DNA of 64,000 nt from Candidatus Methanomethylophilaceae archaeon (GCA_944320495.1 CALUHR010000013.1:487931-551930), one strand, 5' to 3'; counted from the first letter of the stretch, positions 6-56,239 are shown. Notes: generated by a model from the letters alone, not told the origin. A program made the numbers and translations.

Positions 6-659
6 TCGGTCCTTCTCGAACATGTGCTTCGGGGAGGTCAGCGGACGGGTCCAGAGCGGGTCGTCCTCCAGCCTCTCCAGGTCGAGTGCCAGATTGCGGA
101 GGCTCCCGCCGTACGACGGGTCCCCGGCAATCCTGCGGATGGTCTTCGAGTCATCGCCGGAGCGCGTCTCCAGGCCCGACATCCTCAGGGCGCCGTCCAT
201 GAGGTCCGCCGCGCGGAGGAGGAGCGTCTGCGCCTCGCGTAGCATGCCTATGCGGGTGTCCGGGTCGACCTTCGCCCTCCTGCCGATCTCGTACCGGGCG
301 GGCTTGGTCTCCGTACCTTTGGCTATGTATCCGCATCTCCTGCAGGACCTGCTCATCTCCACGGTCCCCCCGTCGAGGGTGCGGTTGCGGACCGATGTCA
401 TCGGGTTGCCGCACACGGGGCACAGGTCGCCGACGGGGCGGTCGCTGGACGCGTAGCTGATCTCCAGGTTGATGAGCCCCCTCTCGATCCCGATGCGCCT
501 GACGCGGTCGGCCCCGACCCTGAAGAGCGGGTCGCGGTACGCCAGGTCGGCGGCGACGGCGTCGCAGAGCTCCCTCTGGGAGCGCATGCGCGGACACCGG
601 ACGAGGCAGTCGTCGATGGACCTGGCCACCTCGTCGTCGCTGGGGATCCTGTAGGCCAT
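6..659 (-). CDS. Hypothetical protein with Zn-ribbon (CPVC...CRRC)
   Basis: ATG at 659 (MAYRIPSDDEVARSIDDCLVR...DLCPVCGNPM...RSCRRCGY). Host-like codon bias. No canonical stop before the window edge; first in-frame CGA at 8-6. Confidence 0.6.
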
Positions 660-712
660 GCGGCCTGGATGTGCATTCCCGTTTATATTCTCGGTGCGCA
701 TCGGTCAGACGA

Positions 713-795
713 GCGGGGGTAGCCGAGTCGGACAAAGGCGCGGGACTTAAGATCCCGTCCGCAGAGGTTCAGGGGTTCGAATCCCCTTCCCCGCA
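713..795 (+). tRNA. tRNA-Leu (anticodon TAA)
   Basis: GCGGGGG/TCCCCGC acceptor stem, CGGGA-CTTAAGA-TCCCG anticodon arm, long variable arm, GGTTCGAATCC T-loop. TATA-like TTTATAT upstream at about 682. Confidence 0.95.
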
Positions 796-839
796 CCTTC
801 TCAGAAAATAGTATACGGGCGTCGTCCGATACGAACCCC

Positions 840-1112
840 ATGTCTGAGAAAAGCGACGAATTCAAGGTCCAGCTCCTGGAGACCTTCGCCTCCCTCATCA
901 CCGCCGCGTTCGGTCTCGTGGCCGCGCTGGCGTGGAACGAGGCGATCAAGCAGGCCGTGGCCGTGGTCTTCCAGTCATCTGACGACCTGGTCGGGCTCAC
1001 CGTCTACGCGGTCATCGTGACCGTCCTGGCGGTCATCATGACCCTGCTCATCGCCCGTTCGCTGAGCAAGGCGAAGAAGGCCCTCCACCTCGCCAAGGAG
1101 GACAAGGAGTGA
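840..1112 (+). CDS. Small two-TM membrane protein (DUF5654-like)
   Basis: LITAAFGLVAALAWNEAIKQ motif and two hydrophobic helices; TGA stop. Confidence 0.75.
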   Translation: MSEKSDEFKVQLLETFASLITAAFGLVAALAWNEAIKQAVAVVFQSSDDLVGLTVYAVIVTVLAVIMTLLIARSLSKAKKALHLAKEDKE

Positions 1113-1114
1113 CC

Positions 1115-2287
1115 TCGGGTCCGGGTCCTGCGCCCGGGCCCGCGAAACATCTTTTTGAGCACTATCCCGCGGCTGGTCAGGTAGCTGAGCAGCGCGTTCC
1201 CGGTGAGCTCCTCGGTCTGGGGCCCCTTTCTGACATAGAATATCTCTATCTTCCCGTCCTTCAGGAACACCGGCTTGGGGCAGCTCTCGCAGTGCACGTG
1301 GATGACGGCCTTCCCGTCGATGTCCACGATCCTCGAGGTTATGAACGGCAGGAACCCCGACCCTATCTGGGACGAAATCAGGTTCCCGAGGTGGAGTCCC
1401 ATCTTGTCCCTGCTCCCGTCGAACGAGTCCACGTCGGCGCCTATGACCGAGCCGTCGTCGGCGACCCCCACGAGGAGGTCCCCTCCGTCCGAGTTGAGGA
1501 AGGCCACGATGGTCTTCAACACGGCCTTCTCCATCCTCTTGTCGTTCTCGCCTGTGGCCAGGTTGGTCCTGAGGGTGGACTTGTACTCCGTCCATTCGGA
1601 CTCGCCCTCCTCGATGATGCGGCGGATCGCCGCCTCCTCCGCGCCCTCCAGCCCTATGGTCTCGGAGTTCTCCTCCAGGAACGTGTTGACGATGCCGTCG
1701 AACACGCTGTCCCTGCGCTGGAACGTGTGCAGGGCGGCCACCACGAGCGCTCCGATCAGGATGTAGGTGAGGTCCTCCATGAAGACGCCCAGGCTCAGGC
1801 CGTCTCTGTAGGGCGCGATCTGCGCGATCCAGTACTGGAGCATCCTCGTGAGGGTGTACGCGGAGAGGGCGATGCAGATCGAGATGAACGACACGGTCGC
1901 ACGGCTCCCGTCGCGGTCCTTCGGCAGCGTGCGCAGGACCGAGTAGACGAGGATCATCCCCAGGAGGCCCAGGTTCATCCCCGTGACCAGGTTCGTCATG
2001 ATCAGCAGGGCCCCGCCGTCGGCGGCCAGGCGTCCGAAGAACGCCAGGAAGAACGCCAGGACGACCAAGACGATGAGCTCCGGCGGGACGTGGATGGCCT
2101 TGCGGTCGGTGAACACGGCCAGCCCGAAGATGATGACCATAGGTATGCCGGTCAGGCCGGCGGTCATCTCCCCCACGGCGAAGCTGATCGCCGTGAACAC
2201 GACGATTATCGCGAAGGAGATGCAGTAGAACGCATACGCGCCGCGCTTCAGCCTGTGCTGCCCGATTGGGCCACCGTGTTCGGCCAT
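1115..2287 (-). CDS. Multi-pass membrane protein fused to a C-terminal Schlafen/AlbA_2 domain
   Basis: ATG 2287; about 6-7 hydrophobic segments, then IIEEGESEWTEYKSTLR...LKTIVAFLNSDGGDLLVGVADDGSVIG...FYVRKGPQTEEL (AlbA_2 pattern). In-frame CGA at 1117-1115; canonical stop only at 1004, inside the convergent gene. Confidence 0.8.
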
Positions 2288-3040: not shown

Positions 3041-3092
3041 CGTCAGTCCCGGAAACGCTTCAATCATAAGGGGGGACTCCATCCCCCATGCC

Positions 3093-6323: not shown

Positions 6324-7613
6324 ATGATCACAGCCATCCGCAACGCCTGGATCGTCACCCAGGACGCCCAGCGCAGGGTCCTGAAGGGGGACGTCGTCAT
6401 AGACGGCGAGAGGATCGTCTCCGTGGGCCCGGCGTACGACGGCACCGCAGACAGGGAGATCGACGCCACCGGCGACATCGTGATGCCGGGGATGATCAAC
6501 ACCCACACCCACATCTCGATGTCCGTCATGAAGGGGGTCGTGGACGACCTGGCATTCCCGGACTTCCTGGACAGGACGTTCAAGATCGACTCCGACCGCA
6601 CCGACGACGACCTCGAGGTCGGCACCAAGCTCGGATGCATGGAGATGATGCGCGGTGGCACGACCACGTTCATGGACCTCTACTACTCGGAGGACGTCAT
6701 CGCGAAGGCCACGCAGGAAGCGGGCATCCGCGGAGTGCTCTGCTGGTGCGTCCTCGACGAGGACAAGACCACCCAGAAGGGCAACCCCCTGGACAACTGC
6801 CGCAGGTTCATCGAGACCCACAGGGGCAGGAGGAAGATCGTCCCCGGCGTGGGGCTCCAGGGCGTGTACGTTTGCGATGAGGACACCTGCGTCGGCGCGA
6901 AGGCCCTCTCGGACGAGATGCAGGCGCCCATGAACTTCCACCTGTCGGAGACGCAGGGCGAGGTCAACGAGCACAAGCGCAAGACCGGCCAGCGTCCCGC
7001 CGAGTGGCTGTCGGGCATCGGGGTCCTCGGACCCAGAGGCGTCGCGGCGCATTCCGCCTACCTCACCATGAGGGAGGTCAGGCTCATGGGCGAGGCAGGG
7101 ATGTCCATATCCAGCTGTCCCGCGTCCAACATGAAGCTCGCCACCTCCGGCCTCGCCCCCGTCCCGCAGTTCCAGCAGAGCGGGGTCAACGTGACCATCG
7201 GCACCGATGGGAGCACCACAAACAACACCCTCGACATGTTCGCCGAGATGAGGCTCCTGGGGCTCCTGCAGAAGTTCGGCAACTGGGACGCGACCGTCGC
7301 CCCCGCCCAGGATCTCCTGGACTTCGCCACCATCAACGGCGCGAAGGCGGTCGGCATGGCCGACTCCATCGGATCCATCGAGCCCGGCAAGTACGCCGAC
7401 CTTGTGATCCTGGACGGGAAGGCCCCCAACCTGAGGCCGCTGCTCCCCGAGAACATCATCGCCAACATAGTCTACTCCGGCAACAGCCTGAACGTGAAGA
7501 CCGTGATGTGCCAGGGCGACGTCGTCGTCGAGGACGGACGCATCACCACCCTGGACACCGAGGACGTCCTGGCCAGGTCCGAGGACGCCTGGCGCTACCT
7601 CTGCCTGAGATGA
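6324..7613 (+). CDS. Amidohydrolase, MTA/SAH (5'-deoxyadenosine) deaminase family
   Basis: PGMINTHTH, FHLSET, AAHS, CPASNMKLA, IGTDGSTTNNTLDMF, GSIEPGKYADLVI. ATG 6324. Confidence 0.85.
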   Translation: MITAIRNAWIVTQDAQRRVLKGDVVIDGERIVSVGPAYDGTADREIDATGDIVMPGMINTHTHISMSVMKGVVDDLAFPDFLDRTFKIDSDRTDDDLEVGTKLGCMEMMRGGTTTFMDLYYSEDVIAKATQEAGIRGVLCWCVLDEDKTTQKGNPLDNCRRFIETHRGRRKIVPGVGLQGVYVCDEDTCVGAKALSDEMQAPMNFHLSETQGEVNEHKRKTGQRPAEWLSGIGVLGPRGVAAHSAYLTMREVRLMGEAGMSISSCPASNMKLATSGLAPVPQFQQSGVNVTIGTDGSTTNNTLDMFAEMRLLGLLQKFGNWDATVAPAQDLLDFATINGAKAVGMADSIGSIEPGKYADLVILDGKAPNLRPLLPENIIANIVYSGNSLNVKTVMCQGDVVVEDGRITTLDTEDVLARSEDAWRYLCLR

Positions 7614-8434
7614 GAGCGGAGTTCGAGGTGCCGGACATACCGGCGATCAGGTCCGAGGGCCTGACGCCGGTGGACATGCACTACCACACCAGCTGCTCGG
7701 ACTCGGACACGGACCCCGTCGCCGCCCTCCGCCTGGCCGAGCGCATGGGCGTGGGGTTCGCGGTCACCGACCACAACCTGATCCAGTCGGTGCTGAGGCT
7801 GAAGGAGGTACGCTCCTCCGTCCCCGTCGTCCCGGGGATGGAGGTCAGCACCACCGACGGCCCGCACATACTGGTCTACTTCCCCACCTCCAGGTCCCTG
7901 GAGAGGTTCTGGTACACGCGCATCCGCCCCCGCATCCAGGAGAACCCGTGGCTGGCCCTCAGGGACTGCACCACCGAGAGGCTCCTGGACATGTGCGAGA
8001 TGGAGGACTGCGTCGTCTCCGCCGCCCACCCCTCGGGATACTTCAACACCAACAAGGGCGTCGAGATCTGCATCCGCAAGGGCATCCTCATGCCGTCGGT
8101 GGCAAGGCGTCTCGACGCATACGAGGTGATCTCCGGGGGAATGACCCGCGAGTCCAACGAGAACTCCATAGCCGCCGCCAAGGAGTACGGGCTGGGGTTC
8201 ACAGGGGGCACCGACTCCCACGTCCTCAACGGCCTCGGAGGCGTCGTCACCGTGTGCCAGTCGTCCACCGTGGAGGGGATCCTGGAGGACGTGAGGCACC
8301 ATCGGGTGGACGTGATCGGACAGGAGAAGAACATCCGCGAGAAGGTCGTCACCGGCTCCGCCTCCGCCATGAAGTTCGCCCTCCACGTGCCCTCGACCGT
8401 ATCGGTGAAGGCTCGCGGGATGGTCCGGAGACGA
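7610..8434 (+). CDS. PHP-domain metal-dependent phosphoesterase
   Basis: ATGA overlap with the deaminase; DMHYHT, AVTDHN, AAHP, GGTDSH motifs. In-frame CGA at 8432-8434 abuts the convergent stop; the canonical ORF would run to 9940. Confidence 0.8.
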
Positions 8435-10440: not shown

Positions 10441-11553
10441 TCGGCGGCCGAGCATCATCTTCCTTCTGAACTCGGCGCTCCTCTTCGCGACCTCGTCCAC
10501 GTTGTGCCTGTCCACCACCTGAACCTCCGGCAGCCTGCGCGGGTTGGCCGCGAGCATCCTGTCCAGGAGGTTCCTGTCGGAGAACTCGCACTTCTTCAGG
10601 TACGGCCTCTCCCAGTTCGACGCCAGGTCCATCATGGCCTCGATCCCGCGGTCGTAGAACAGCGAGGCGAACACGGCGCCGACGGTGGACTCCTTGGACA
10701 TGATGGCGATGTTGCACCCGCGCACGGCGAAGTCGGTCCCGTTGAACGAGACCGCCGCCCCGCCCGCGTCTCTCACGAGGTCCAGGCACTGGTAGTCCGT
10801 GTCGTCCCCTCCGATGTACATGGTGCAGTCCAGGTCGATGTTGGTCTGCTTCCTGATGTCCAGGAGCTGGTACGCCTTGCGGTGGGACGTCACAGGCACC
10901 GAGGACTCCATGAGGCTCATGGCCGGGAGCTCGGGTATCTGGTTCTGGAGGATGTCGTCCAGGGTCCTGATGATCTTGACGTCCCACTCGTCGATCTCCA
11001 TGGGGACGTTGAGCTCGTACTCCACCTTCGGGATGCGCAGGGACGTCACCGTCTCGCACATCTCGCGCATCCTGCGGGCGTCCGCGCGACCGAACTGCAT
11101 GTGGTCGAGGTCGGTCTGGGAGCAGAACACCTCGCACAGCGGCACGTCGATCCTGTCGGCGACGGTCATCCATCCGTGATTGTAGATTGAGGTGGACACG
11201 AAGGTGGGGAGCATCCGGGATATGAAGCGGAGCGCGTCCTCGGAGCCGGGCATGAACCTGAGCGTCTCCTCGTACGCCTTCTTCAGGAGATGGTCGGTGG
11301 CGCCGTTGGCCTTCAGGAAAGGGATGACCCATTTGGCGGTGTTGCCGGCCGTGGCCTCCTCCCTGCCCAGCACATAGGCGGTGAGATGGTCGTACCTCCT
11401 CACCACGTCGTAGAAGTGGGCGCCGTTGCGGATGAAGCGGGCGCAGACGTCGCGGAGGGGGTCGTTCTGAAGGACGAAGCCGCAGAGGTTCGTCACGAGG
11501 ATCCTGTCGGGGAAGAGCCCGAGCTCCTCCGCGGGGTCGTACTCTCCCGGCAT
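10441..11553 (-). CDS. HAD-like protein resembling EhaR/COG4030
   Basis: LQNDPLRDVCARFIRNGAHFYDVVRRYD...AGNTAKWVIPFLKANG...MPG...STS, late YIGGDDTDYQC and SFNG motifs, recalled as COG4030-like. In-frame CGA at 10443-10441; canonical TGA at 10426. Confidence 0.6.
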
Positions 11554-12380
11554 CGCTGGTCCTCCAGCGCCCTGTCGACCATCTCGGAGAGGTCCACGGG
11601 TCCGCGGACGGTTCCGTCCGAGGTCACAGGCCTCTTGTCCTCTATCCTGACCCTGCCGTCGGCGAAGGCCCTGATGGTCTCGGTTATGAGGGGGAGCTCG
11701 CGCTTGGCACCATCCTCCCTGATCCTCTTGAACAGGGGCTCCTCCAGCCCCTCGGATGCCTTGATCTGGTCGAGGGTGGACGATTCCAGCTTCCTCGCCA
11801 TCTGCTCCCACAGGGCGTCGTAGTTGCCTCCGCGGATGGGGAACCCGCAGTATGTGATGGCCGCCCCGCGGTCCCACTCCTTGGTGCACACGTGCATCAT
11901 GGCGCCCTGTCTCTCCGCGTTCTCGGAGATGAGCTGCCAGATGACCTCCTGCCAGGTGCCTTTTGGTCCGTCCGGCAGAGCGGGGTGGAGGTTGAGCATG
12001 TCGAACTCGTCGCAGGTCTCGTCGTCCATCCAGAGCATGTATCCGGCGAGGATCCCCAGGTCGAACTCGTACGGGGAGACGGCCTCGCGGAGCACCTTGC
12101 CGTACTCCACGCGCCATGCGGCCTCGTCGGCCTCCCTCAGCTCGGGCATGAACTCCTTCCAGGATGCGGTTACGAGCGGGATGCCGTAGCCCTCGACCAT
12201 GTCGAAGAACATCTGCCGCTGTTCGCGCTTGGGGTTGTCGGTCTCCTCGTTGGACCAGTTGCAGAAGACGAATGCAATCTCGACGTCCAGGTCGCCCGCG
12301 AGCTTTCTGTCCATGACAGCCTTCAGGAGGTTGCGGGACCCCGGGCCCCTTCCGGTGGAGAACCAGCCGAGTCTGAGCAT
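11553..12380 (-). CDS. purN: Formyltransferase, PurN-like (phosphoribosylglycinamide formyltransferase)
   Basis: LGWFSTGRG, LAGYMLW, NLHPALP, GAMMH, WDRG motifs. CGA at 11555-11553 overlaps the next ATG (CGATG); canonical stop at 11493. Confidence 0.7.
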
Positions 12381-13053: not shown

Positions 13054-13281
13054 ATGCGGATGGTCATGGAATCCCCCTGCGTCGCGGTCACCGTCAACGG
13101 GAAGGTCATCGAGGTCCCTGAGGGGACGACGCTGGCGGATCTGCTGGGTTCCGAGGGGTACGACCGGTCCCGCATCGCGGTGGAGGTCGACGGGGACATC
13201 TGTCCCCGCGCGGATCTCGGCTCCCGTGTCATCAGAGGCGGTGAGACGGTCGAGGTCGTCTCCTTCGTCGGAGGCGGATGA
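13054..13281 (+). CDS. thiS: Sulfur carrier protein ThiS
   Basis: VTVNGK...IAVEVDG...[11 protein letters not shown]-terminus. Start could also be 13060 or 13066. Confidence 0.9.
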   Translation: MRMVMESPCVAVTVNGKVIEVPEGTTLADLLGSEGYDRSRIAVEVDGDICPRADLGSRVIRGGETVEVVSFVGGG

Positions 13282-13841
13282 TGGGCCGCGGCGTGCGCAT
13301 AGGGATCGCCGGGCTGGGTGGCATGGGCTCCAACGTGGCCGTTATGCTGGTCCGCTCCGGGTTCCGCGACCTCGTGGTGGCGGACTTCGACACGGTGGAC
13401 GAATCGAACATAGCCAGACAGGCGTATCTGCCGTGCCATCTGGGCATGTCCAAGACGGACGCTCTGGCATCCGTCCTGCACGACATCGATCCCGGGGCAT
13501 CGGTGGAGGTCCACGATACGAGGCTCGACGCCTCCAACGCCGCCGGGATATTCTCCGCATGCGACGTGGTGTGCGAGGCCCTGGACGACCCGGAGTCGAA
13601 GGCGATGCTCGTCGAGACCCTGCTGGAGGCCGGGTTCACGGTGGTCGCATGCTCCGGGATGGCCGGCGACGGGGATGCCAACTCCATAGTCACGCGCAGG
13701 GCGATGGGGCGTCTCTGGGTCTGCGGCGACGGGGTGTCCGACGTTGCGTCCGAGGGGAGGCTGAACGCCGCCCGCGTGTCCGTGTGCGCGGGTCACATGG
13801 CGCTTGCGGCCATGCATCTGGCACAGGGGGAGGAACCCCGA
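13278..13841 (+). CDS. thiF: ThiS adenylyltransferase ThiF
   Basis: [41 protein letters not shown] overlap with thiS. In-frame CGA at 13839-13841; canonical TGA at 13862. Confidence 0.85.
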
Positions 13842-15770: not shown

Positions 15771-16348
15771 TCGCCGTCACGTCCCGCTCGCTGTGCGGGG
15801 AGCCGTTCCTGACGAGGGTCGCCAGGCTGGCCGAGGCCCGTCCGGAGATGATCATCCTGAGGGAGAAGGACCTCACGGAGGGCGAGTACCTGGCACTGGC
15901 GGCTGGATGCAAGCGCATCTGCGACCCTCTAGGCGTGCCTCTGGTCGTCAACCACTTCGTGTGGGTGGCCGGCATGCTGGGGATCAGAAGGATCCACCTG
16001 CCGATGCCGGACCTCCGCGAGGAGGACGTGTCGGGGTTCGACCTCGTGGGCGCGTCCGTGCACTCCGTGGAGGAGGCCAGGGAGGCCGTGTCGCTCGGGG
16101 CGGATTATCTCATAGCGGGGCACGTTTTCGGAACCGCCTGCAAGCCTACCGAGCCGAGGGGGCTCGGATTTCTTCGCGACGTCTGCTCGGCCGTGGACGT
16201 CCCCGTGTACGCCATCGGGGGCGTGGGCCCCGACAACTACCGGAGCGTCCTCGAGGCCGGTGCGCACGGCGCCGCGGTGATGTCGTCGGCCATGACCTGC
16301 GACGATCCCGAGGCTCTCGTTGACGCGATGCCCTCTCGCAAAGGTCGA
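15767..16348 (+). CDS. thiE: Thiamine phosphate synthase ThiE/TenI-like
   Basis: IILREKDL, IHLP, GASVHSVEEA, GADYLIAGHVFGTACK, VYAIGGV. In-frame CGA at 16346-16348; canonical TGA at 16366. Confidence 0.8.
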
Positions 16349-16372: not shown

Positions 16373-17008
16373 ATGGACGAGGCGACCTTCGACCGCGCCA
16401 AGGCATTCATCCGCGACCTCTTCGAGGGCGACAGCGGCGGTCACGACTACTGGCATTCGATTCGCGTCCACGACCTCGCCGTCTCCATCTGCGGCAGGGA
16501 GGGAGGCGACATGGACGTCGTCCGTCTGGCGGCGCTCCTGCACGATGCGGACGACCGCAAGCTCTTCGGACAGGGGAGCCGCAACGCCAGGGGATTCATG
16601 GACTCCGAGGGCATACCCTCAGACGTCCAGGACGAGGTCGTGGAGATCATATCGAAGATATCGTTCAAGGGAGCCGACACCGAGGTGCCCGCATCGCTGG
16701 AGGGGAGGATAGTCCAGGACGCCGACAGGCTGGACGCCATAGGTGCCGTCGGCATAGCCAGGGCCTTCGCCTACGGCGGGAGCAGGGGCCGTCCGATGCA
16801 CGATCCGGAGGTCCCGCCGTGCGAGGGCATGGGCGAGGCCGCCTACTTCGCCAATCGCGGGACGACGGTCAACCACTTCCACGAGAAGCTGCTCCTGCTG
16901 AAGGACATGATGAACACCCCGACCGCCCGCGCCATGGCGGAGTCCCGCCACCGCTACATGGAGGGCTTCCTGGAGGAGTTCCTGGACGAGTGGGAGGGCC
17001 GCAGGCGA
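16373..17008 (+). CDS. HD-domain phosphohydrolase (YedJ-like)
   Basis: GHDYWHSIRV, LAALLHDADD, VQDADRLDAIGAVGIARAFAYGG, HFHEKLL, FLDEWEG. CGA at 17006-17008 gives 211 aa; canonical stop at 17305. Confidence 0.85.
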
Positions 17009-17668
17009 TCGCAGGAGCTCGAACCGGTTCTTGGAGAACTTCAGGACGCCGTCGGCCTGCATCCTTCCGAGCTCGGCCGACAGGGCGCTCCTGTCCACGC
17101 CCAGGTGGTCGGCCATCTGCTGCCTGTTCAGCGGTATGGAGAACTCGTTGCTCCCCGCGATCCTGGCCTGGTCGGACAGATAGGCGCACACCTTCTCGCG
17201 GATGCTCCGCTTCGACATCTGCCCCAGCCTCCTGTCGCGCTCCACGGTGCTGCGGGCGAGGGCCTGGACCAGATTTCTGACGACTCTCGAATGGAACTGG
17301 CATGATGACGGGCAGGTCGTCGTCACCCTGGAGATCTCGAAGAACATGATCTCGGACCGATCGCTGGTGACGAAGCTCGTGTCCGCCCGCTCGCCCATCG
17401 AGCACGCGTACTCTGCGAAGATCACATCGCCCGGTCCGTGAGAGGAGACCAGGGTCCTGTTCCCCCACCAATCCTGTTTTATGACGTCGACGCGGCCGTC
17501 GAGGACGACACCCAGGCAGTCGACGGGGTCCCCGCTGCGAAGCACGAACTCCCCCTTGGGATACTTCTCCCTGCGGGCGTTCAGGCATTCGCACATCGCT
17601 GTAATCTCATCATCAGACGTCCCCAGGAAGATCCCGGTGTTCCTGAGGATGGGGATTGGGCTTCTCAT
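17009..17668 (-). CDS. Crp/Fnr family transcriptional regulator (HcpR-like by context)
   Basis: cNMP-binding fold, then SIREKVCAYL...LNRQQMADHLGVDRSALSAELGRMQADG...NRFELL HTH. CGA at 17011-17009 gives 219 aa; canonical stop at 16619. Confidence 0.88.
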
Positions 17669-38374: not shown

Positions 38375-39258
38375 GCTATCACCAGCAGCGCGATGATGTT
38401 GCCCATGCCGAGGACCAGGGAGACGATCCATCCGCTCTTCAGGGCGGTCTGCCACTTCATGCGGGCGAATCCGTTGTCGATCCAGATCTCCAGGATGTAG
38501 GCGAGGACCGCCACGACGGCGCCGATCACGACACCCGTCCATTCACCGTTCTGGAAAAACAGCGCCACCATGCCCAGGAGCATGATATTCTCGTACCAGT
38601 GAGAGACCTCCATCATCGCATAGGTGCGACCGGAGAACTCGGTGGCGACCCCGCGGACTATGTCCTGATGGGCGTGATGGGACATGCTGAGGTCGAACGG
38701 CGACTTCCTGAGCTTCATGGTGAGGATGAACAGGAATCCGAGGAAGATCCCAAGCATGGGGAGGATCGCCATGTCGCCGAATCCAGCTATGTCCCTGACG
38801 GCGAACGAGCCGCCGTCCTCCCCTCCGGTGAACAGGTAGTAGGCAACGGCCATAATCAGAATCATCGGCTCGTAGGCCATGGCGACGTAGATCTCCCTCT
38901 GGGCCCCGACCTGTGCGAACGGGGATCCGGAGCAGTACGCCGCCAGGACCAGGAACGTCTCGCCCAGCGTCAGGGTGAAGACGATCAGCAGCAGGTCCAT
39001 GCCCGCGAAGAACATGGCCCCAGTGACGACTATCCAGAACAGGTAGCACGCCACATAGAAGTCCTGGACGCGGTTGGACGTCCTGCGCTCCTTGGCGAGC
39101 AGCTTGCGGACGTCGTACAGGGGCTGCATGACGGGCGGTCCCTGCCTGCCCTGCATCCTGGCGGAGATCTTCCTGTCGATACCGGCGAGGATGCATCCGG
39201 CGACAGGCGCCAGAGCAACGAAGATCACGGCGAACAGCAGGAGTGTCCAGTTGCTCAT
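38371..39258 (-). CDS. echB: Ech membrane subunit B (NuoH-like)
   Basis: GIDRKISARMQGRQGPPVMQPLYDVRKLL, KSPFDLS, HQDIVRG. Confidence 0.9.
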   Translation of the reverse strand: MSNWTLLLFAVIFVALAPVAGCILAGIDRKISARMQGRQGPPVMQPLYDVRKLLAKERRTSNRVQDFYVACYLFWIVVTGAMFFAGMDLLLIVFTLTLGETFLVLAAYCSGSPFAQVGAQREIYVAMAYEPMILIMAVAYYLFTGGEDGGSFAVRDIAGFGDMAILPMLGIFLGFLFILTMKLRKSPFDLSMSHHAHQDIVRGVATEFSGRTYAMMEVSHWYENIMLLGMVALFFQNGEWTGVVIGAVVAVLAYILEIWIDNGFARMKWQTALKSGWIVSLVLGMGNIIALLVIA

Positions 39259-41174
39259 CGCAGCCACCCCCCGCAGGCCAGGACGATGCAGGCGACGATG
39301 ACGACCGCGGTCACGGCCTCCCCGACCTTCCTTATCCTGTCCTCGCCGAACCAGTCCTCCATGTACCAGTTCCTGAGAGTCACGTTCACCGGTGCCCCCA
39401 TGGACCCGGTGTAGCTCAGGTCGTCGATGTTGACTCCGGACATGTAGTTGGGCACCTCCTTTGTTTTGGATCTGCCGAAGAACGGCACGAAGATCAGCAC
39501 CAGCGCGACCAGCATTATCAGCAGGAGGTACAGGTTGTTGGTCTCCATCAGGGCCAGGTCCGCGTGCTCGGGGAAGAATGCGATGTCCATCCACGGCACC
39601 ACGAGCCAGTCGGAGAGCAGCGGATAGCCAAGGCAGACGATGACCACGAGGGCGGCCAGCGATCCGAGCACGGTCCACTCCTGAGGCCTGACGGTGTCCT
39701 CGATGTCCTTCGCATCCCTGACCACGCACGCGAGCTTGCCGAGCCACTTGGTCCAGTAGAACCCGGTGACGGCGCTCCCGAACGCGATGCACGCGACGAG
39801 GATGACGCTCATGGCCTCCTCGGTGTCGACGAAGGCAGTCAGGGCGGCCCACTTGGATATCAGCATGCCGAACGGCACCAGGAACATGGCCGCTATGCCG
39901 AGCATCATGATCAAGGCGAGCTTGGGCATGCGGGCGAACAGCCCGTCCATGTCCTCTATGTTCCTGCTGCCTATGTGATGCTCCGCGGTCCCGACGCAGA
40001 GGAAGAGCAGGGACTTGGTGATCGCGTGGAACACCATCAGCATGACGCCTGCCCAGGCGGCCTCCGGTGTGCCGACCCCGGCGCACGCGACGATGAGGCC
40101 CAGGTTGGCTATGGTCGAATAGGCCAGCACGCGCTTGGCGTTGCTCTGGGATATGGCGGCCATCGATGCCAGGAGGAATGTCAGTCCTCCGACGGCCATG
40201 ACCATGTCGCCTCCGATGTTCCCGTAGAGCAGGGGCGACAGCTTGAGCAGCATGAACACCCCGGCCTTGACCATGGTGGACGAGTGCAGCAGCGCGGATG
40301 TGGGCGTAGGCGCGACCATCGCTCCGAGCAGCCACGTGTGGAACGGCATCTGGGCGGACTTCACGATGCCCGCCAGGGCCATCAGCATGACCGCCACGAG
40401 CAGCCAGTCCGCGACGAGGGCGTCGGGTGTCGCCAGGAGCCTGTCCAGGGCGAGGAAGCCTTCCTGGTCGGCCAGGAGGATCAGCGCCGCGAGGAACGCT
40501 ATGCCTCCGATCAGGTTCAGGATCAGCTGGCGGAACGAGTTGTTGACCGCCTCCTCCGTCCTGGTGAATCCGATGAGGGCGAAGGAGCACAGTGTCGTTA
40601 TCTCCCAGAAGAAGAACATCCATACGAGGTTGTTCGACAGGACGACGCCGTACATGGCGCTGAGGAAGACGAACAGCAGGAAGAAGAACCAGCGCCTGCG
40701 GTCCTTCTCGTCGGCGTGATGCTCCTGGAAGTCCCTCATGTAGCCCACGGCGTACACGCAGATCAGGCTACCGATGATTCCGATGATCAGGATCATCACG
40801 ATGCTCAGGTCATCGATGTAGAGCCCGTTCTCGACCTCGATGCCTTCCTTGAAGACGAATTCGAAGCAGACGGACATCACCAGCTGCACCAGTCCGAGGA
40901 CCGATGCGATCGGCTTCTTGTGTTTGATACCTAGATAGATGATGACCAGGCCCAGGATCGCCTCTATGGCGAACATGAGCAGGTCGATGGACTCCCCCGA
41001 GACCTCGAACGTCTGAGGATCGCCGTGATAGTTCCAAGCCACCCAGATGGAGGTTGCGATGATCAGGGCGGCGCCGATATAGGATATCGGACCCCTGGCC
41101 CTGTCGTTCTTCACCACCAGGAGGATGCATGCGACGATGAATGGGATGACCATCATCAGCAGTATGTCGTTCAT
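39255..41174 (-). CDS. echA: Ech membrane subunit A (NuoL/MrpA-like)
   Basis: FFWEITTLCSF, KSAQMPFHTWLLGAMVAPTPTSALLHSSTMVKAGV, KRVLAYST, FHAITKSLLFL. Ends CGA-TGA over the echB ATG. GTG 41180 is an alternative start. Confidence 0.9.
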   Translation of the reverse strand: MNDILLMMVIPFIVACILLVVKNDRARGPISYIGAALIIATSIWVAWNYHGDPQTFEVSGESIDLLMFAIEAILGLVIIYLGIKHKKPIASVLGLVQLVMSVCFEFVFKEGIEVENGLYIDDLSIVMILIIGIIGSLICVYAVGYMRDFQEHHADEKDRRRWFFFLLFVFLSAMYGVVLSNNLVWMFFFWEITTLCSFALIGFTRTEEAVNNSFRQLILNLIGGIAFLAALILLADQEGFLALDRLLATPDALVADWLLVAVMLMALAGIVKSAQMPFHTWLLGAMVAPTPTSALLHSSTMVKAGVFMLLKLSPLLYGNIGGDMVMAVGGLTFLLASMAAISQSNAKRVLAYSTIANLGLIVACAGVGTPEAAWAGVMLMVFHAITKSLLFLCVGTAEHHIGSRNIEDMDGLFARMPKLALIMMLGIAAMFLVPFGMLISKWAALTAFVDTEEAMSVILVACIAFGSAVTGFYWTKWLGKLACVVRDAKDIEDTVRPQEWTVLGSLAALVVIVCLGYPLLSDWLVVPWMDIAFFPEHADLALMETNNLYLLLIMLVALVLIFVPFFGRSKTKEVPNYMSGVNIDDLSYTGSMGAPVNVTLRNWYMEDWFGEDRIRKVGEAVTAVVIVACIVLACGGWLR

Positions 41175-41464
41175 GAGCACCTCTCCGTACCCTTCCGAGA
41201 GGGTATCTGAGGTGTGCCTCGGGAATCCGTATTAAAAAAATTTGTCAAAACCGCCTCAAAGAGGAGCGAAACTTCACTGCGGGCGGGGCGTTTTCAAGAT
41301 GCATGATTACACATCATAACGAGATGACATTCGTTTGGAATGGATTCGATACGAAATCAGGCGTCCAAGCGACTTATATATCAAGTTATCGAGTTGTTTT
41401 ATAAATCGACGAATTTATCTATCTGTTTTAACAGCCGTTCCGCCAAACCACCGATATTTGTAGT

Positions 41465-48843: not shown

Positions 48844-48999
48844 CGAGGGCATCCTCGAGGAGGGCGGTCAGCGGACCGCCCCTTCCATGAGGGGAGGGTC
48901 GTTCCGCAGATGACACTGCCGGTACTGGACGGTTTTTCGGCTGTATGGCCCATGGTCGAGATAGCAGTCCTTCCTCGACATCGTTTCAATCCACCTGGG

Positions 49000-50149: not shown

Positions 50150-51469
50150 TCGGTTCTCCCACGGCATCCTCGGGTCGAGGAGCTCCGTCAGGAGCAGTGG
50201 GTCGACGGTGTCTATCGTCGCTTCGGAGTCCAGGATCTCCATGGTTTTCGTGTCCAGCTCCTTCCCGATCCCGGAGATCGGCCCCTCGCGCTCCAACATG
50301 GCGGCGGCGGTTGCGTACTGTCTGTCCGCGACGACCACCCAGTGCCCGTTTTCGATGAACGGCTCGCCGTGAGGATTCCCCTTCCATCTCTCGAGGAACG
50401 GCGCGGAGTCCACCCATACGGGCGGGCCGATGTGCCTGTGCGTCGCCGGCAGGACGTCGCACTCCAGCTCGAAGGCCACGGTCATGTGCGTGTCGTCCAT
50501 CGCGTGCTCCGCCCTGAGGACGCTGAACCCGAAGGAGTCCAGCCTCTTGGCGAGGGCGTTCTGGGTCTTCCACAGCTGGGACTGCAGGTTGTCTTCGATC
50601 GCATCCGGTCTCGGGAAGCGTACGGCGGTCAGCCTGGAACCGTGCGATGCGATCCTGGCCTCCAGCACCCCGCGGTCCATGGGGGCCCTCGCATTGGGGA
50701 AGAAGAACTCCATCCTCGGCTCCCTCAGGTACTCCCTGGCGGCCTGGATGAACAGGCACATGGTGTCCAGGTGGACAGCCGATGCGACGTTGCGCCTGTT
50801 GTCCACCGGGTCGTACACCACCAGCGGGGCATCCATCTTCGGACCTCTGCCGCGGACCTCGATGACGTTGTGCTCGCGCCATCTCGACGCGGCCTCCAGC
50901 ACCCCGCGGAAGCTTCCGAACCTCACTACGAGGACCTCGCACAGGTACCCGGAGAAACCCCTGGAGTCCTGCTCCGCGCCGTAGGTGCCGATGCCCTTCA
51001 TGAACTTCTTGAGCAGGCGGACCTGGTTGCATCCGGCCTCATCCAGGCTGGATTTGATGAATGCGGTGTGGAACGGGGTGCGGTCGACGGCGCTCTTCAG
51101 ATGCTCGGTGCTGTCGATGCGGAAGCACGGCACCATGTCCACCTCGATGCCCTCGAAGACCCCCCTGGTGTAGGGGTGGTCGGAGAACATCCTCTCGCCG
51201 TGCAGTATGTCCTCGCCGGCCTGCAGCCCGATCCTCCTGAGGTCCTCGGGGCTGACCTCCGGAGGAAACATCAGGAACAGGTCGAGGTCCGGATCGGCCA
51301 GGAACGTGTTCTTGGAGAAGGACCCGGCGAACCTGGCCTCGGCAGTGATGCCGTGGGAGGCGACGTAATCCTCCACGAGGGCCTTCAGGCGGTCCGCGCG
51401 CTCCCGTATCGATGCGACGGTCTCCGGCGAAGGAACGATCCTCTCAAGCACCACATCCTCGAGTTCCAT
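50150..51469 (-). CDS. cca: CCA-adding enzyme (archaeal class I)
   Basis: GSFSKNTFLADPDLDLF, HPY, DMVPC, SAVDRTPFH, VRLLKKFMKGIGTYGAE, GFSGYLCE, DPVDNRRNVASAV. CGA at 50152-50150 gives 439 aa; canonical stop at 50093 lies inside tRNA-Pro. Confidence 0.92.
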
Positions 51470-51582
51470 GGCCTCACGGATGCGGATGTGTAATATAAAA
51501 CTGGGTCGGGTAAACCCGGAGCGGACGGGGGATCGAACCACCATGGGTACAATGAGGGGCGTCGCCCCTCATTGAAACGGTT

Positions 51583-53250: not shown

Positions 53251-53332
53251 CGTAATCGTGTGTCGGAAAGTGGGATAGGATAAAAGGGGTTGCACGGGGG
53301 TGTGGGGCGGCGGGGTCTCCCCCGCCTTGGTT

Positions 53333-54991
53333 TCAGAAGTGGCAGTCTCCCTTGATGATCGGGATCTTGGGGTCGTTGGGCAACATCGGGAGGATGTCCT
53401 CCTCGGGGTCGATCATGATCTCGACGATGGTCGTGACATCGGACTCCATCGCGTCCTTGAGGGCGTCGTATATCTCTCCGGGCCTCTCGACCCTGATGCC
53501 CTTCGCGCGGTAGCCCTTGGCGATGGTGACGAAGTCGGGGTCGTCTCCGAGCTCCTGGGCGGAGTACCTCTTGCCCCAGTAGTGCTTCTGCATCTGCCTG
53601 ATCATGCCGAGGCATCCGTTGTTCAGCAGGACGATGGTGACCGGCAGGTCCTCCGCGACCGACGTGGCGAGCTCCTGGATGACCATCTGGAGTCCGCCGT
53701 CCCCTGTGACGGTGACGACCTTCTTGTCCTTCATGGCGGCCTTCGCGCCGATGGCGGAAGGGAGGCCGAACCCCATGGTGCCGAACGTCCCGGACGATAT
53801 GAACTGGCGCGGGTGCTCGATGTTCAGGTAGTGCATCGCCCACATCTGGTTCTGTCCGACGTCGGTGGTGATGATGGTGTCGTCATCGATGAGCCTGTTG
53901 AGCTCCTGCATGATCCTCTGGGGCTTGATCGGGACGGCGTCGTTGTCGGGGGTGATGTACGAGTCCGCCTTCAGCTGCCTGGCGTGGCTGTTCCAGGACT
54001 CCCATCTCAGCGGGGCGGAGCCGAGGGCGCAGATGAGGCCGCGGATCGCCTTGCGGGCATCGGCCTGCAGATTGACGCACTGGTGCCCGTGCTTCCTGAA
54101 CTCGGTGGGGTCGACGTCGATGTGGATGACCCTCCCCTGGGACATGCGGTCGTGGGGGCTGTAGGTCCTGTCCGAGAACCTGCTGCCTATCGATATGATG
54201 AGATCGGCCTCGGCCGAGAGCTGGATGGCTGCGAGTCTCCCATGGAGGCCCAGTGGTCCCATGTTCATCTCGTACGAGGACGGGACGACGCCCATGCCCA
54301 TCAGCGTGTTGACGACAGGGGCGCCCATGAGCCTCGCGAGCTCCATGACCTCCGCGGAGGCGTTCATCGCCCCTCCGCCGACGAGGATCAGCGGCCTCTG
54401 GCTCTCGCGTATCCACTGGACGGCCTCGTGCATACCGGAGAGGTCCTCGGTCAGTGGCTTGACCCCGTACTCCTCGTGTAGCAGCGCCGGGTCCAGGTCC
54501 TTCCCCATCTGGTCGACGGGGAGGTCGATGTGGACCGGTCCCCTCCTGCCCATCTGGCATATGTCCCAGGCCTCGCTGATCGCGTGGGGGAGCCTCTCGA
54601 CGTCCAGGACCCTGAAGCTGTGCTTGGTGATCGGCATCAGCAGGCTGTAGGCGTCGACCTCCTGGAACGCCCCCTGTCCGAGGGATCCGGCGGCGACCTG
54701 CCCGGTGAGCGCTATCATCGGCACGGAGTCCGCGTAAGCCGTGGCGATTCCGGTGACGAGGTTCGTGGTGCCGGGTCCGCTGGTAGCCAGGCAGACGCCG
54801 GGTACGTTCTTAGCCCTCGCGTATCCGTCCGCCATGTGGGCGGCGCACTGCTCGTGCCTGACCAGGATGTGCCTGATGTCGGAGTCGAGCAGCTCGTTGT
54901 AGATGGACAGGACGCTTCCACCGGGGTATCCGAATATGGTGTCGGCGCCTCTCTCCTCCAGCATGCCAAGGAGCGCTTCCGTGCCTCTCAT
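53333..54991 (-). CDS. ilvB: Acetolactate synthase large subunit (paralog 2)
   Basis: Same motif set; RBS GGAGG before ATG 54991. Confidence 0.9.
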   Translation of the reverse strand: MRGTEALLGMLEERGADTIFGYPGGSVLSIYNELLDSDIRHILVRHEQCAAHMADGYARAKNVPGVCLATSGPGTTNLVTGIATAYADSVPMIALTGQVAAGSLGQGAFQEVDAYSLLMPITKHSFRVLDVERLPHAISEAWDICQMGRRGPVHIDLPVDQMGKDLDPALLHEEYGVKPLTEDLSGMHEAVQWIRESQRPLILVGGGAMNASAEVMELARLMGAPVVNTLMGMGVVPSSYEMNMGPLGLHGRLAAIQLSAEADLIISIGSRFSDRTYSPHDRMSQGRVIHIDVDPTEFRKHGHQCVNLQADARKAIRGLICALGSAPLRWESWNSHARQLKADSYITPDNDAVPIKPQRIMQELNRLIDDDTIITTDVGQNQMWAMHYLNIEHPRQFISSGTFGTMGFGLPSAIGAKAAMKDKKVVTVTGDGGLQMVIQELATSVAEDLPVTIVLLNNGCLGMIRQMQKHYWGKRYSAQELGDDPDFVTIAKGYRAKGIRVERPGEIYDALKDAMESDVTTIVEIMIDPEEDILPMLPNDPKIPIIKGDCHF

Positions 54992-55219
54992 TGATTTCCT
55001 CCAGGCTGGCATCGTGCCGTCGAGTTATAACCGTGATGGCCTGTCCGGGAGGTCGGGAGCAAGCCTCCGTCCCTTTCGCGGGGACGTCCGTCGGGGACCG
55101 CGGGTCCTGGGTCACACCCAGTTCCCGGGGAAACCCGCGAGCGGCGCCGTGCGCGCGCCCGTCGCATCCCGACGCTAACCCTAATAAACGTCACGGCGAT
55201 GGCCGAGCCAGGTTATTCC

Positions 55220-56239
55220 ATGGCTAAGGTCAGGGTTGGAGTCAACGGTTACGGCACTATAGGCAAGAGGGTGGCCACGGCCATCGCCAAGCAGGACGAC
55301 ATGGAGCTCGTGGGCGTCACCAAGACCAGGCCCAACTACGAGGCTCTGGACGCGCTCTCGAAAGGATACGGCCTCTACATCCCCGAGGAGAGCGTCGAGG
55401 CCTTCGAGAAGGCCGGCGTGAAATATTCCGGCACCATCAAGGACATGCTCGGCAAGGTCGACATCGTCGTCGACTGCACCCCCGGCAACGTCGGGGAGTA
55501 CTATAGGGACATGTACAAGGCCGCCGGCGTCAAGGCCATCTTCCAGGGCGGGGAGGAGCACAGCCTCACGGGCATTTCATTCAACTCCACCGCCAACTAC
55601 GCGGAGTCCTGGGGTGCGCCCATGTCCAGGGTCGTCTCCTGCAACACCACCGCTCTCCTGAGGACCCTCTATCCCATCGACAAGGCGCTCCGCATCAAGA
55701 ACGCCTACGTCACGATCGTCAGACGCGCGGCGGATCCCGGCGACAGCAAGGGCGGCCCCATCAACGGCCTCGAGCCCTCCGTCAAGCTCCCCACGCACCA
55801 CGGCCCCGATGTGCAGAGCGTCATGCCCTGGCTCAACATCAACACCATGGCTGTGAAGGCGTCCACGACCCTCATGCATGTGCAGACGGTCGTCGCCCAG
55901 CTCTCCCAGCAGACCACCACCGAGGAGGTCCTGGACATCCTGAGGCAGGCCCCCAGGGTCAGGCTCGTGAAGAGCTCGGACGGTATCAAGTCCACCCCGC
56001 AGATCATGGAGCTGGCCCGCGACCTCGGCCGCGACCGCTCCGACATGTACGAGATCGTCGTCTGGGAGGACGGCTTCAAGGTCGTCGGCGACACGCTGTA
56101 CTACTACCAGGCGGTTCACCAGGAGTCCGACGTTGTGCCGGAGAATGTGGACTGCATCAGGTCCATGTGCAAGATGATCCAGGATCCAGCGGAGTCGGTC
56201 GCCAAGACGAACGCCTCCATGGGTATCGGGAAGAACCGA
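55220..56239 (+). CDS. gap: Glyceraldehyde-3-phosphate dehydrogenase (archaeal type II)
   Basis: VGVNGYGTIGKRVA, VVSCNTT, THHGPDV, HQESDVVPENVDCIR, KTNASMGI. CGA at 56237-56239 gives 339 aa; canonical stop at 56545 lies inside pgk. Confidence 0.93.

Follow-up and report, generated by a model that had tools for sequence, protein, structure and literature searches.

The window analysed in this work, a stretch of 64,000 nucleotides, comes from the 1.77 Mb genome (G000) of a chicken-gut methanogen, which belongs to the Methanomethylophilaceae and to the genus of Ca. Methanoprimaticola. An earlier note on this DNA had listed 17 genes that appeared to end at an in-frame CGA codon. All 17 coordinates do carry CGA (TCG in the plus strand for minus-strand genes), and 15 of the gene ends proved real: here a strong coding stretch runs up to the CGA without meeting an earlier stop-like codon, and beyond the CGA either the coding potential of the same frame falls or a gene starts in another frame. 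The other two were uninformative, one (16346..16348, +) belonging to a weakly scoring ORF (15767-16366) that reaches its TGA six codons later, the other (48844..48846, +) directly following the TAG that already closes ORF 48550-48843.

At the left edge of the window the minus-strand genes 6..665 and 1115..2266 end on CGA at 6-8 and 1115-1117, the next standard stop being 296 codons on, beyond the window, in the first and 37 codons on in the second. The PHP / RNase RNM-like gene at 7607..8434 (+) has its CGA at 8432-8434, immediately beside the TGA of a convergent gene (8435-10261), the two codons together reading CGATCA; the product up to the CGA has 275 aa and weakly matches a profile of 275 positions, whereas the standard frame is 502 codons longer. 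Both the gene at 10441..11544 (-, CGA end 10441-10443, standard stop 5 codons on) and the formyltransferase-like gene at 11553..12371 (-, CGA end 11553-11555, with a profile match) terminate in a CGATG context, and in the latter the coding potential carries on in the frame of the ATG. Gene 13278..13841 (+) ends at 13839-13841, seven codons ahead of a standard stop, and is followed by a gene in another frame. The HD phosphohydrolase gene 16373..17008 (+, CGA end 17006-17008) and the Crp/Fnr-type regulator gene 17009..17656 (-, CGA end 17009-17011, profile match) converge, their ends sharing the palindrome CGATCG. The family match of the hydrolase stops at residue 212, standard read-through giving 310 aa. 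The YbaK-like deacylase gene 20328..20822 (+, profile match) ends at 20820-20822, again in a CGATG context.

In the hexapeptide-repeat acetyltransferase gene at 34484..34999 (+, CGA end 34997-34999), residues 25-169 correspond to positions 35-179 of the 183 positions of the maltose O-acetyltransferase profile, and CGA is codon 172. Then follow, all on the minus strand, an Fpo/Nuo-like operon gene (37578..37943, CGA end 37578-37580), a NuoB-like gene with a profile match (37940..38347, CGA end 37940-37942), a 657-codon gene (39258..41231) whose CGA at 39258-39260 lies at its extreme end, with a TGA directly after it as an immediate backup stop, and the gene of the archaeal CCA-adding enzyme (50150..51487, CGA end 50150-50152, standard stop 19 codons on). 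The last in the series is the archaeal GAPDH gene at 55199..56239 (+, CGA end 56237-56239). Its 346-aa product corresponds to solved homologs end to end, the alignment reaching 2-3 residues before the CGA, and reading on to the standard stop would lengthen it by 102 residues, through the next gene. The matches of the acetyltransferase, HD hydrolase, Crp/Fnr and PHP-family proteins likewise stop at or near the CGA and not at the standard stop. We could also reproduce the overlaps that disappear when CGA is taken as the gene end: 1506 nt (502 codons) at 8432, 687 nt (99 + 130 codons) for the convergent pair at 17006/17009, and a 296-nt overlap with the next gene at 56237, where the standard stop is 102 codons away.

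By coding-potential calls the genes of the window end on TGA in 41 cases, on CGA in 16, on TAG in 4 and on TAA in none; one of the 16 CGA ends belongs to a probable shadow ORF. The claim that in-frame CGA is missing from gene interiors held for the window, where no CGA has coding potential on both sides, but it has exceptions in the whole genome, in which a handful of real internal CGAs occur (in the genes of aRF1, L18e and a flavodoxin-like protein).

Genome-wide, CGA is met before any standard stop in 321 of 1487 confidently coding frames, i.e. in about one in five genes (~22%). Of these CGAs 203 are clear ends, 98 lie at most 10 codons from a standard stop and 7 are apparently internal. When 15 control codons were subjected to the same test, with the score of CGA itself neutralised, all 15 were, unlike CGA, mostly internal; the counts for end, near a standard stop and internal were 66, 52 and 320 for CGG, 37, 43 and 604 for CGT, and 16, 23 and 103 for CAA. 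The gene-end pattern of CGA is far beyond chance. The genome-wide count proposed in the earlier note showed CGA to be nearly absent from gene interiors: among in-frame codons of true-frame ORFs, a coding signal was present on both sides of only 5 of 853 CGAs, compared with 346 of 1182 CGGs and 742 of 1529 CGTs, and even a loose search yielded only 20 candidates for internal CGA, several of them gene junctions. Out of frame the triplet shows no avoidance (within genes 8324 NCG|A sites, observed/expected 0.93), and in frame +2 it is as frequent as 70 per 1000, thus the effect follows the reading frame.

Orthologous stops were compared between independent assemblies, and TGA and CGA were found to interchange at them. 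The GAPDH gene ends on CGA in G000, G018, G010, G003 and G001 while that codon is TGA in G009 and G023, an interchange repeated in named public MAGs. For gene 37578, CGA in G000 stands against TGA at exactly the same codon in ten other species of the genus, and the codon that ends gene 37940 is TGA in G009 and CGA in G018 and G126. Among relatives in which CGA is seldom the sole stop, the remaining CGAs are located 0-6 codons ahead of a standard stop.

Our comparison of these genomes showed that CGA is nearly extinct within genes, marks the apparent end of ~22% of them, is exchanged with TGA in orthologs and behaves so in a frame-dependent manner. The core reading, CGA as a stop, is supported by coding potential, homolog lengths, the TGA/CGA interchange in orthologs and frame specificity, and the same observations back the effective stop set YGA, plus rare TAA and TAG, put forward in the earlier note. 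We conclude that CGA is very probably a fourth stop codon in this methanogen and its closest relatives.

How CGA would be read as a stop is a separate question, on which the genes of the tRNA and of the release factor bear. ARAGORN called a tRNA-Arg(UCG) in G000 and in 23 sampled relatives from the genus, none being read for G006. The gene shows compensatory stem changes, and its anticodon arm is atypical, with a 4-bp anticodon stem caused by a 31-39 mismatch or, in one subclade, with C33; in other genera this tRNA is canonical. These calls and the compensatory changes refute the loss of tRNA-Arg(UCG), which had been suggested as one possible mechanism. The suggestion that CGA is an unassigned codon fails as well, since the cognate tRNA is present, 321 genes end on CGA, and conserved Arg sites of aRF1 and L18e are encoded by CGA.

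The genome has one aRF1 gene only, in which NIKS, YxCxxxF and E55 are unaltered. Beside the decoding motifs, substitutions at the human-equivalent positions 56, 66 and 68 are fixed in the genus, among them F56 to Q and R68 to M, and G000 and G018 have Ser at G31. R65 and R68 were placed at the rRNA/mRNA interface adjoining NIKS (PMC4605324, PMC4381064). According to structural work, U in the first position of the stop codon is needed for the U-turn geometry, C being unable to make the same contacts (PMC4605324), which, like the unaltered motifs, speaks against the reading of CGA by this factor. It must be noted that no substitution in the N-domain separates, within the genus, heavy users of CGA stops from non-users, and that R68 is replaced by M or L also in three genera still using CGA at 0.9-1.6 per 1000 codons. 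The aRF1 gene itself contains one in-frame CGA, at an Arg position, in 25 of 25 genomes of the genus, at codon 68 but in G005 at codon 15. Most genera of the family also have an in-frame CGA in this gene (codon 1, 15, 17, 40, 68 or 113); it is lacking in four sampled family genomes representing three genera.

Our best guess, based on gene sequences, is that aRF1 has release activity on CGA, i.e. that it tolerates C in the first position, as was also considered in the earlier note. The single aRF1 would accept C as well as U there if GA follows, and would compete at CGA with the retained, atypical tRNA-Arg(UCG). We consider it rather probable that an in-frame CGA is a termination signal at which release takes place as at TGA, with aRF1 reading the codon against a weak tRNA. 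Some CGAs, at aRF1 codon ~68, at L18e codon 30 and in the flavodoxin-like gene, would still be read as Arg. Because the tRNA is evidently functional and two essential genes use CGA for Arg, the codon cannot be an absolute stop; as judged from these sites, it is a leaky, dual-use codon, mostly a stop but still Arg at a few conserved positions. It is possible that the early in-frame CGA of the aRF1 gene lets the factor sense its own activity in a prfB-like feedback.

The alternative that survives best, although we regard it as unlikely, is that CGA is a 'hungry' codon, at which ribosomes stall for want of a sufficient or good tRNA-Arg(UCG) and the peptide is released by rescue (aPelota/ABCE1 splitting followed by peptidyl-tRNA hydrolase, or drop-off) instead of codon-specific recognition by aRF1. 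The genus-specific defects in the anticodon arm of the tRNA (31-39 mismatch or C33), the unchanged core motifs of aRF1, and a CGA depletion in the family that precedes stop use are all compatible with it. It would require, however, that ~22% of the genes, including housekeeping ones such as those of GAPDH, the CCA enzyme and Fpo subunits, rely on a slow and costly process, which seems unlikely at that scale, and nearby backup stops are barely enriched (the median distance to the next one is 28 codons after CGA and 29 after TGA). Moreover, rescue factors of the aPelota/ABCE1 type prefer ribosomes that have reached the 3' end of an mRNA, whereas many CGA ends sit within operons, in CGATG overlaps. 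The same tRNA must also read CGA in L18e, a high-output gene.

Quite improbable, in our estimate, is site-specific C-to-U editing of the mRNA, which would convert the terminal CGA to UGA and thus create the stop after transcription under a standard code. A single C/T difference separates CGA from the dominant stop TGA, the two are swapped between orthologs, and CGA-to-UGA editing that creates stops occurs in plant organelles. To explain the purge of CGA from gene interiors, editing would have to act on all in-frame CGAs. The enzyme responsible would be blind to the reading frame, yet CGA is special in that frame only, and the lack of avoidance of the out-of-frame NCG|A sites mentioned above disfavours this explanation. 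The 321 CGA sites share no surrounding motif beyond a preference for T at +4, and the conserved CGAs in aRF1 and L18e would have to escape the enzyme. To our knowledge, no comparable mRNA editing system exists in archaea. Site 37578 is covered by an RNA contig (X19, 37544-37786) that has 2 differences of unlisted position, the RNA data consisting of contigs only.

Even less credible is the view that CGA is plain Arg and that the genes simply carry C-terminal extensions to the next standard stop as tolerated stop losses. The conserved tRNA-Arg(UCG) and the decoding of CGA as Arg in aRF1 and L18e would agree with it. But the same-frame coding score downstream of CGA is negative in 91% of the testable cases, the extensions run antisense or out of frame through neighbour genes for up to 502 codons, and their length depends wildly on the species (80, 99, 103, 213 and >400 codons for GAPDH). 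Among the one-step mutants of TGA only CGA accumulates at gene ends, and the view offers no reason for its vanishing from gene interiors.

Errors of assembly or sequencing (T-to-C in the consensus) or contamination are effectively refuted as the cause: the same CGA ends recur in many independently assembled species and in public MAGs of several studies, Logan contigs covering sites 37578 and 50150 (chicken-gut DNA run X1; the best-matching DNA run may be the genome's own sample) have 0 differences at each, and such errors would neither purge CGA from gene interiors nor respect the reading frame.

The relatives also bear on how this use of CGA may have arisen. In Methanomethylophilus alvus CGA was found 0 times among about 9,760 sampled codons, and other Methanomethylophilaceae genera represent an intermediate stage with CGA nearly extinct in coding sequence. 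This suggests that depletion of CGA in the core Methanomethylophilaceae came first, that the codon then probably survived in aRF1, in L18e and otherwise just at extreme C-termini, and that replacement of TGA by CGA may have spread in a third stage in one GC-rich subclade of the genus. Codon 30 of L18e is CGA across the order; its conservation extends to outgroups in which CGA is used normally, so that a different constraint must lie behind it.

It is useful to compare this putative code with known systems. Sense codons became stops in vertebrate mitochondria (AGA/AGG, NCBI table 2) and in the mitochondria of Scenedesmus obliquus (TCA, table 22) and Thraustochytrium (TTA, table 23). As in these organelles, a standard sense codon is gone from gene interiors and marks gene ends. 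The organellar codes, however, operate in tiny genomes that encode roughly a dozen proteins and a reduced set of tRNAs, whereas here the change would affect about 320 genes on the chromosome of a free-living archaeon and the cognate tRNA is kept. The AGA/AGG ends of human mitochondrial genes were explained by a -1 shift onto UAG; at CGA, in contrast, no frameshift can yield a stop, since none of the codons NCG, GAN and ANN is one. Unassigned codons (CGG in Mycoplasma capricolum, AGA/AUA in Micrococcus luteus) lack their tRNA and are not used at gene ends. They resemble CGA in being nearly extinct in coding sequence, as it is in other Methanomethylophilaceae genera, but here the tRNA is kept and ~22% of the genes end on the codon. 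Bacterial prfB, encoding release factor 2, is autoregulated through an early in-frame UGA passed by +1 frameshift. The aRF1 gene similarly carries early in its sequence its proposed target codon, conserved across species and nearly absent elsewhere, but passage would occur by ordinary decoding by tRNA-Arg(UCG), and the four sampled family genomes mentioned above have no CGA in aRF1.

As far as the literature searched shows, a sense-to-stop code has never been demonstrated before in a free-living organism, which agrees with the earlier note, whose author knew of no such case. A 2026 preprint reports two Njordarchaeales MAGs in which CGG means Trp and CGA is absent from recognisable domains, and raises the possibility that CGA is a stop; it only notes the absence, its own method cannot infer stops, and it contains no mention of 'Methanomassiliicoccales' or 'Methanomethylophil' (bioRxiv 10.64898/2026.04.02.715157). 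The two cases share an archaeal host, the lack of CGA in protein interiors and the suggested stop role. They differ in that the Njordarchaeales belong to a different phylum, tRNA-UCG was reported missing there, and evidence from gene ends or orthologs is lacking, while the tRNA is retained here.

Codetta identified bacterial reassignments of CGA/CGG to Trp in Absconditabacteria, of CGG to Gln or Trp and of AGG to Met (PMC8629427). There, too, arginine CGN/AGG codons changed meaning after becoming rare, but the changes were sense-to-sense and involved altered tRNAs, while ours would be sense-to-stop. Methods of this type cannot detect sense-to-stop changes, thus the present CGA case would be left uninferred.

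The ciliates Condylostoma and Parduczia have stops with context-dependent dual meaning, and tRNAs with a 4-bp anticodon stem occur in Blastocrithidia and bacteria (PMC13092985). The likeness lies in one codon serving both as sense and as stop, and in a shortened anticodon stem accompanying the code change. In the ciliates and Blastocrithidia standard stops gained a sense meaning, whereas here a sense codon appears to have become a stop as well, and the tRNA with the 4-bp stem is, unlike in those cases, the one cognate to the changed codon itself.

The source genome (G000) is a 1.77 Mb assembly of 14 contigs with 62% GC (about 85% GC at third codon positions), in which the window corresponds to G000:C13:487931-551930. 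The public labels on its GAPDH relatives include Methanomassiliicoccales, Methanomethylophilaceae and Candidatus Methanoprimaticola, and the sequencing runs containing the sequence are chiefly chicken-gut and bird metagenomes. An earlier note had proposed that the arginine codon CGA acts as a stop codon here and had named 17 window sites where it would close a gene. Inspection of the sequence found CGA at all 17, on the strand claimed. Coding potential, estimated with a codon log-odds model trained on G000's own true-frame ORFs, indicated that genes end at CGA in 15 of these sites: the 40 codons upstream are strongly coding, and downstream the same frame is negative or a different frame is coding. 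The remaining two were uninformative, the CGA at 16346 lying six codons upstream of a TGA in a weak ORF, and that at 48844 directly after a TAG. The overlaps which the note had calculated for reading through CGA were exact: 502 codons (1506 nt) at 8432, 687 nt between the convergent genes ending at 17006 and 17009, and 296 nt between GAPDH and the next gene. By the coding-potential calls the gene ends in the window are TGA (41), CGA (16, one of them a probable shadow ORF) and TAG (4), with no TAA.

Some features of the window deserve mention in their own right. At 48841-48846 a TAG, rare as a gene end in this genome, is followed at once by CGA and closes a 97-codon ORF, possibly as a tandem stop; in methanogens of the Methanomassiliicoccales TAG encodes pyrrolysine in methyltransferase genes. 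The window carries ordinary tRNA genes for Leu-UAA (713-797), Glu-UUC (10345-10420) and Pro-UGG (50032-50107), and the standard-code frame of the CCA-enzyme gene, whose CGA is at 50150, would cross the tRNA-Pro gene.

Across the genome, in-frame CGA had coding signal on both sides in only 5 of 853 cases, compared with 346/1182 for CGG, 742/1529 for CGT and 101/510 for CAA in the same test. With CGA treated as an additional stop, the 1487 frames that scored confidently as coding ended in TGA (1048), CGA (321), TAG (76) or TAA (42), and downstream of the terminal CGA the same-frame coding score was below zero in 91% of the testable cases. In a control that gave the tested codon a score of zero, occurrences were classed as clear ends, no more than ten codons from a standard stop, ambiguous or internal. 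The counts in this order were 203, 98, 13 and 7 for CGA, whereas the internal class dominated for all 15 control codons (e.g. 66, 52, 49 and 320 for CGG; 16, 23, 25 and 103 for CAA). The most economical reading, which we consider very probable, is that CGA ends translation by some mechanism.

One such mechanism would be that ribosomes stall at CGA and are released by rescue, a route that the earlier note had raised for an unassigned codon. We regard stall-and-rescue as unlikely. Counted from the terminal CGA, the first standard stop in frame follows at a median of 28 codons (38% beyond 50), much as after TGA (median 29 codons, 36% beyond 50), which suggests that backup stops are under little selection, with a slight enrichment of standard stops within ten codons (30.5% after CGA vs 23.4% after TGA). 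A frameshift at CGA was rejected as an explanation, since a shift of one or two bases gives NCG, GAN or ANN, never a stop.

The base following the terminal CGA is T in 57% of the cases, as opposed to 29% for TGA, mainly as CGATC or CGATG, and 46 of the 321 CGA ends fall on CGATCG, where convergent genes abut without spacer (e.g. window 17006-17011). Convergent genes also abut on CGATCA/TGATCG (e.g. window 8432-8437), abutting palindromic double stops being common. No rule of nucleotide context was found that divides sense from stop CGAs; the sense CGAs of the gene for archaeal release factor 1 (aRF1) are followed by C, G or T.

Site-specific C-to-U editing of CGA to UGA, also suggested in the earlier note, appears still less probable. 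The RNA-run contigs, available as assembled contigs only, cover the CGA sites thinly. The trinucleotide itself is abundant (1730 on the plus strand of the window; 70 per 1000 in codon frame +2), and the out-of-frame NCG|A inside genes is not avoided (n=8324, observed/expected 0.93). Only in-frame CGA is thus special, and such a frame-restricted effect indicates decoding by the ribosome rather than a process directed by the sequence as such.

True read-through, by which CGA would simply be translated and the longer proteins would be real, is very improbable in our judgement. The read-through GAPDH aligns with four solved archaeal GAPDHs only to residues 343-345, CGA being codon 347, and these homologs terminate 1-4 residues beyond the aligned part. 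A maltose-acetyltransferase profile of 183 positions was matched through position 179 at residue 169, three codons before the CGA (codon 172), and by the profiles of the HD hydrolase, Crp/Fnr regulator and PHP families, too, the proteins should finish at the CGA or close to it, without a further 100-500 residues. A PDB search gave no match for the read-through product of gene 7607-9937.

Orthologous stops interchange between TGA and CGA, a check that the earlier note had proposed. The GAPDH gene ends in CGA in G000 and four relatives (G018, G010, G003 and G001) and in TGA at the identical codon in G009 and G023; other species have a TGA or TAA end within five codons of the G000 position, and the CGA end is also found in the named public MAGs UBA537, SRP313737_co1_167 and SI.A92 bin 58. 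An Fpo/Nuo-like operon includes a gene whose end at 37578 is CGA in G000; there is a CGA one codon later in G018, a CGA nearby in G010, G132 and G126, and TGA at G000's codon in ten other species. For the gene that ends at 37940 the final codon is CGA in G000, G018 and G126 and TGA in G009, and a neighbouring gene with a TGA end in G000 has one in every aligned species. Contigs of a chicken-gut DNA run (X1) covering 37578 and 50150 showed no difference. Since CGA ends recur in independent assemblies, the consensus error that the earlier note had considered is excluded, and the chance that the pattern is an artefact of any kind is negligible.

The earlier note had also envisaged that tRNA-Arg(UCG) was lost and that aRF1 tolerates C in the first codon position. 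The first part proved wrong. The arginine tRNA set of G000 is complete, with five members, among them tRNA-Arg(UCG) at C13:413317-413390. ARAGORN, whose tRNAs with very long 'introns' we treated as false positives, found tRNA-Arg(UCG) in G000 and in 23 relatives sampled from its genus (that of Ca. Methanoprimaticola); for G006 tRNA-Arg(GCG) alone was read. Compensatory changes occur in the anticodon stem between species, hence the tRNA is under selection. It is nonetheless atypical in the genus, with a short D-loop (alignment A1; loci L150-L188). Reading of the anticodon arm showed a mismatched pair 31-39 (A·A, C·A or U·C), and thus a 4-bp stem, in 19 genus genomes. A subclade (G008/G015/G019/G007/G005) instead has C33 in place of the near-universal U and a 27-43 mismatch. 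Neither the 31-39 mismatch nor C33 occurs in one outgroup or in the five further family genera examined, where the arm is otherwise canonical; the stem is fully paired in four of these genera, and G047 (g16) has a 28-42 mismatch.

G000 has a single aRF1 gene (C2:85942-87135) and also encodes Pelota. Across the genus the aRF1 gene contains just one in-frame CGA, which in 24 of 25 genomes falls on the conserved Arg of IAARLKTY (codon 68, approximately); in G005 this position is Lys and the CGA is at codon 15. Most genera of the family also have one aRF1 CGA, at codon 1, 15, 17, 40, 68 or 113, among them a genome with codon 15 that is, we assume, Methanomethylophilus alvus. The site has shifted between lineages and the presence of one CGA has persisted, which is striking in genomes that otherwise have 0 CGA per about 4,000-10,000 sampled codons. 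Among the family genomes sampled, aRF1 lacks CGA in one g22 genome, in g10 and in both g27 genomes, and the basal g20 has four. In the protein, NIKS, YxCxxxF and E55 are unchanged, and the differences from outgroups that are fixed in the genus adjoin these motifs, namely Q at human-equivalent position 56, T at 66 and M at 68. G31 is replaced by Ser in G000 and G018, and G001 carries NIRS. R65/R68 are reported to lie at the RNA interface beside NIKS (PMC4605324, PMC4381064), which offers a lead. Among genus members, heavy users of CGA stops and non-users are not set apart by any N-domain column; the few columns that do distinguish them lie toward the C-terminus and track phylogeny. R68 to M/L was rejected as a correlate of CGA depletion across genera, because the match was partial and three M-bearing genera still use CGA.

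A loose search yielded 20 internal CGA candidates genome-wide, several of which are same-frame gene junctions (GmhA/GmhB, an ankyrin-like gene, the gene upstream of a flavin reductase). Real internal CGAs occur in aRF1, in a flavodoxin-like gene (G000:C8:55685; locus L236:593-1153) within the conserved motif GKTI-R-PFCT, where the codon may be a recent acquisition, and in the gene of ribosomal protein L18e (G000:C13:191557-191913, minus strand; locus L240:732-1088), where codon 30 specifies the Arg of IWRD. Order-wide, 29 of 30 genomes, outgroups with ordinary CGA use included, have CGA at this L18e codon, and G001 has CGT; the flanking ATC TGG ... GAY is invariant and other Arg columns vary freely, which points to a constraint at the nucleotide level or to a pause site. 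At a small number of essential sites CGA therefore keeps its Arg reading, which accounts for the retention of tRNA-Arg(UCG).

The phylogenetic survey used 10-60 kb samples and self-trained coding-potential models; counting genes by long ORFs was abandoned as misleading in the relatives because of shadow ORFs in GC-rich genomes. Per 1000 codons, CGA frequency was 0.7-3.4 in four sampled outgroup families, 1.4-2.2 in basal genera (R or K at the R68 position), 0.9-1.6 in g12, g18 and g22, and 0.26-0.44 in g10, g11, g14 and g25; g13, g15, g16, g17, g23, g24 and g26 had none in 900-9,800 sampled codons. In the sampled genus genomes internal CGA was absent outside aRF1, except in two small samples, G022 (contig C143) and G011, with 6-8 internal CGAs in ~2,000-2,500 codons; foreign DNA or a CGA-using species are possibilities. 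Frequent CGA gene ends were seen only in the neighbourhood of G000 (G018, G010, G003 and G001, and less markedly G013 and G009). G013, which matching coordinates identify as Ca. Methanoprimaticola sp. MG2, has gene ends of the CGATG type. Elsewhere the surviving CGAs are mostly 0-6 codons upstream of a standard stop, as would be expected if CGA were harmful only where premature termination matters.

As to how CGA ends translation, we moderately favour a scheme in which aRF1 would read YGA, so that CGA as well as UGA triggers release, in competition with a weakened tRNA-Arg(UCG); the CGA inside the aRF1 gene could provide feedback on aRF1, this being the least certain part. More tentatively, CGA might have a dual meaning in a free-living archaeon, closing some 320 genes and specifying Arg at a handful of conserved positions, with the balance set by aRF1 against a deliberately weakened tRNA and sensed through aRF1's own CGA. 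If so, the family would preserve a path from normal use (basal genera) through extinction (core genera, e.g. Methanomethylophilus alvus) to stop capture (the Methanoprimaticola subclade), and thus let intermediate stages relevant to the codon-capture and ambiguous-intermediate theories be studied in living organisms. A CGA stop would be the first sense-to-stop code change in a cellular, free-living organism, affecting hundreds of genes. As standard gene callers read through CGA, about one fifth of the database proteins of these genomes would carry false C-terminal extensions, overlaps or fusions. The lineage comprises gut methanogens, including cultured or enriched strains, so the idea is directly testable, and the Methanomethylophilaceae are a source of the PylRS/tRNA-Pyl pairs in wide use for code expansion, which gives an odd decoding apparatus practical interest.

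It is instructive to compare these results with known systems. U in the first position is reported to be required for the U-turn of the stop codon (PMC4605324, PMC4381064), likewise a lead, and a CGA stop would be an exception to the structural rule for eRF1/aRF1 that stops begin with U. In the literature searched we found no description of a stop function for CGA in Methanomassiliicoccales or Methanomethylophilus, and with Codetta stops cannot be inferred (PMC8629427). For two Njordarchaeales MAGs, in which CGA and tRNA-UCG are reported absent, the possibility of a stop has been raised (2026 preprint, bioRxiv 10.64898/2026.04.02.715157). New here are the retained atypical tRNA and the CGA conserved within aRF1 and within L18e; the test of frame specificity, the control codons and the series across the family are new as well.
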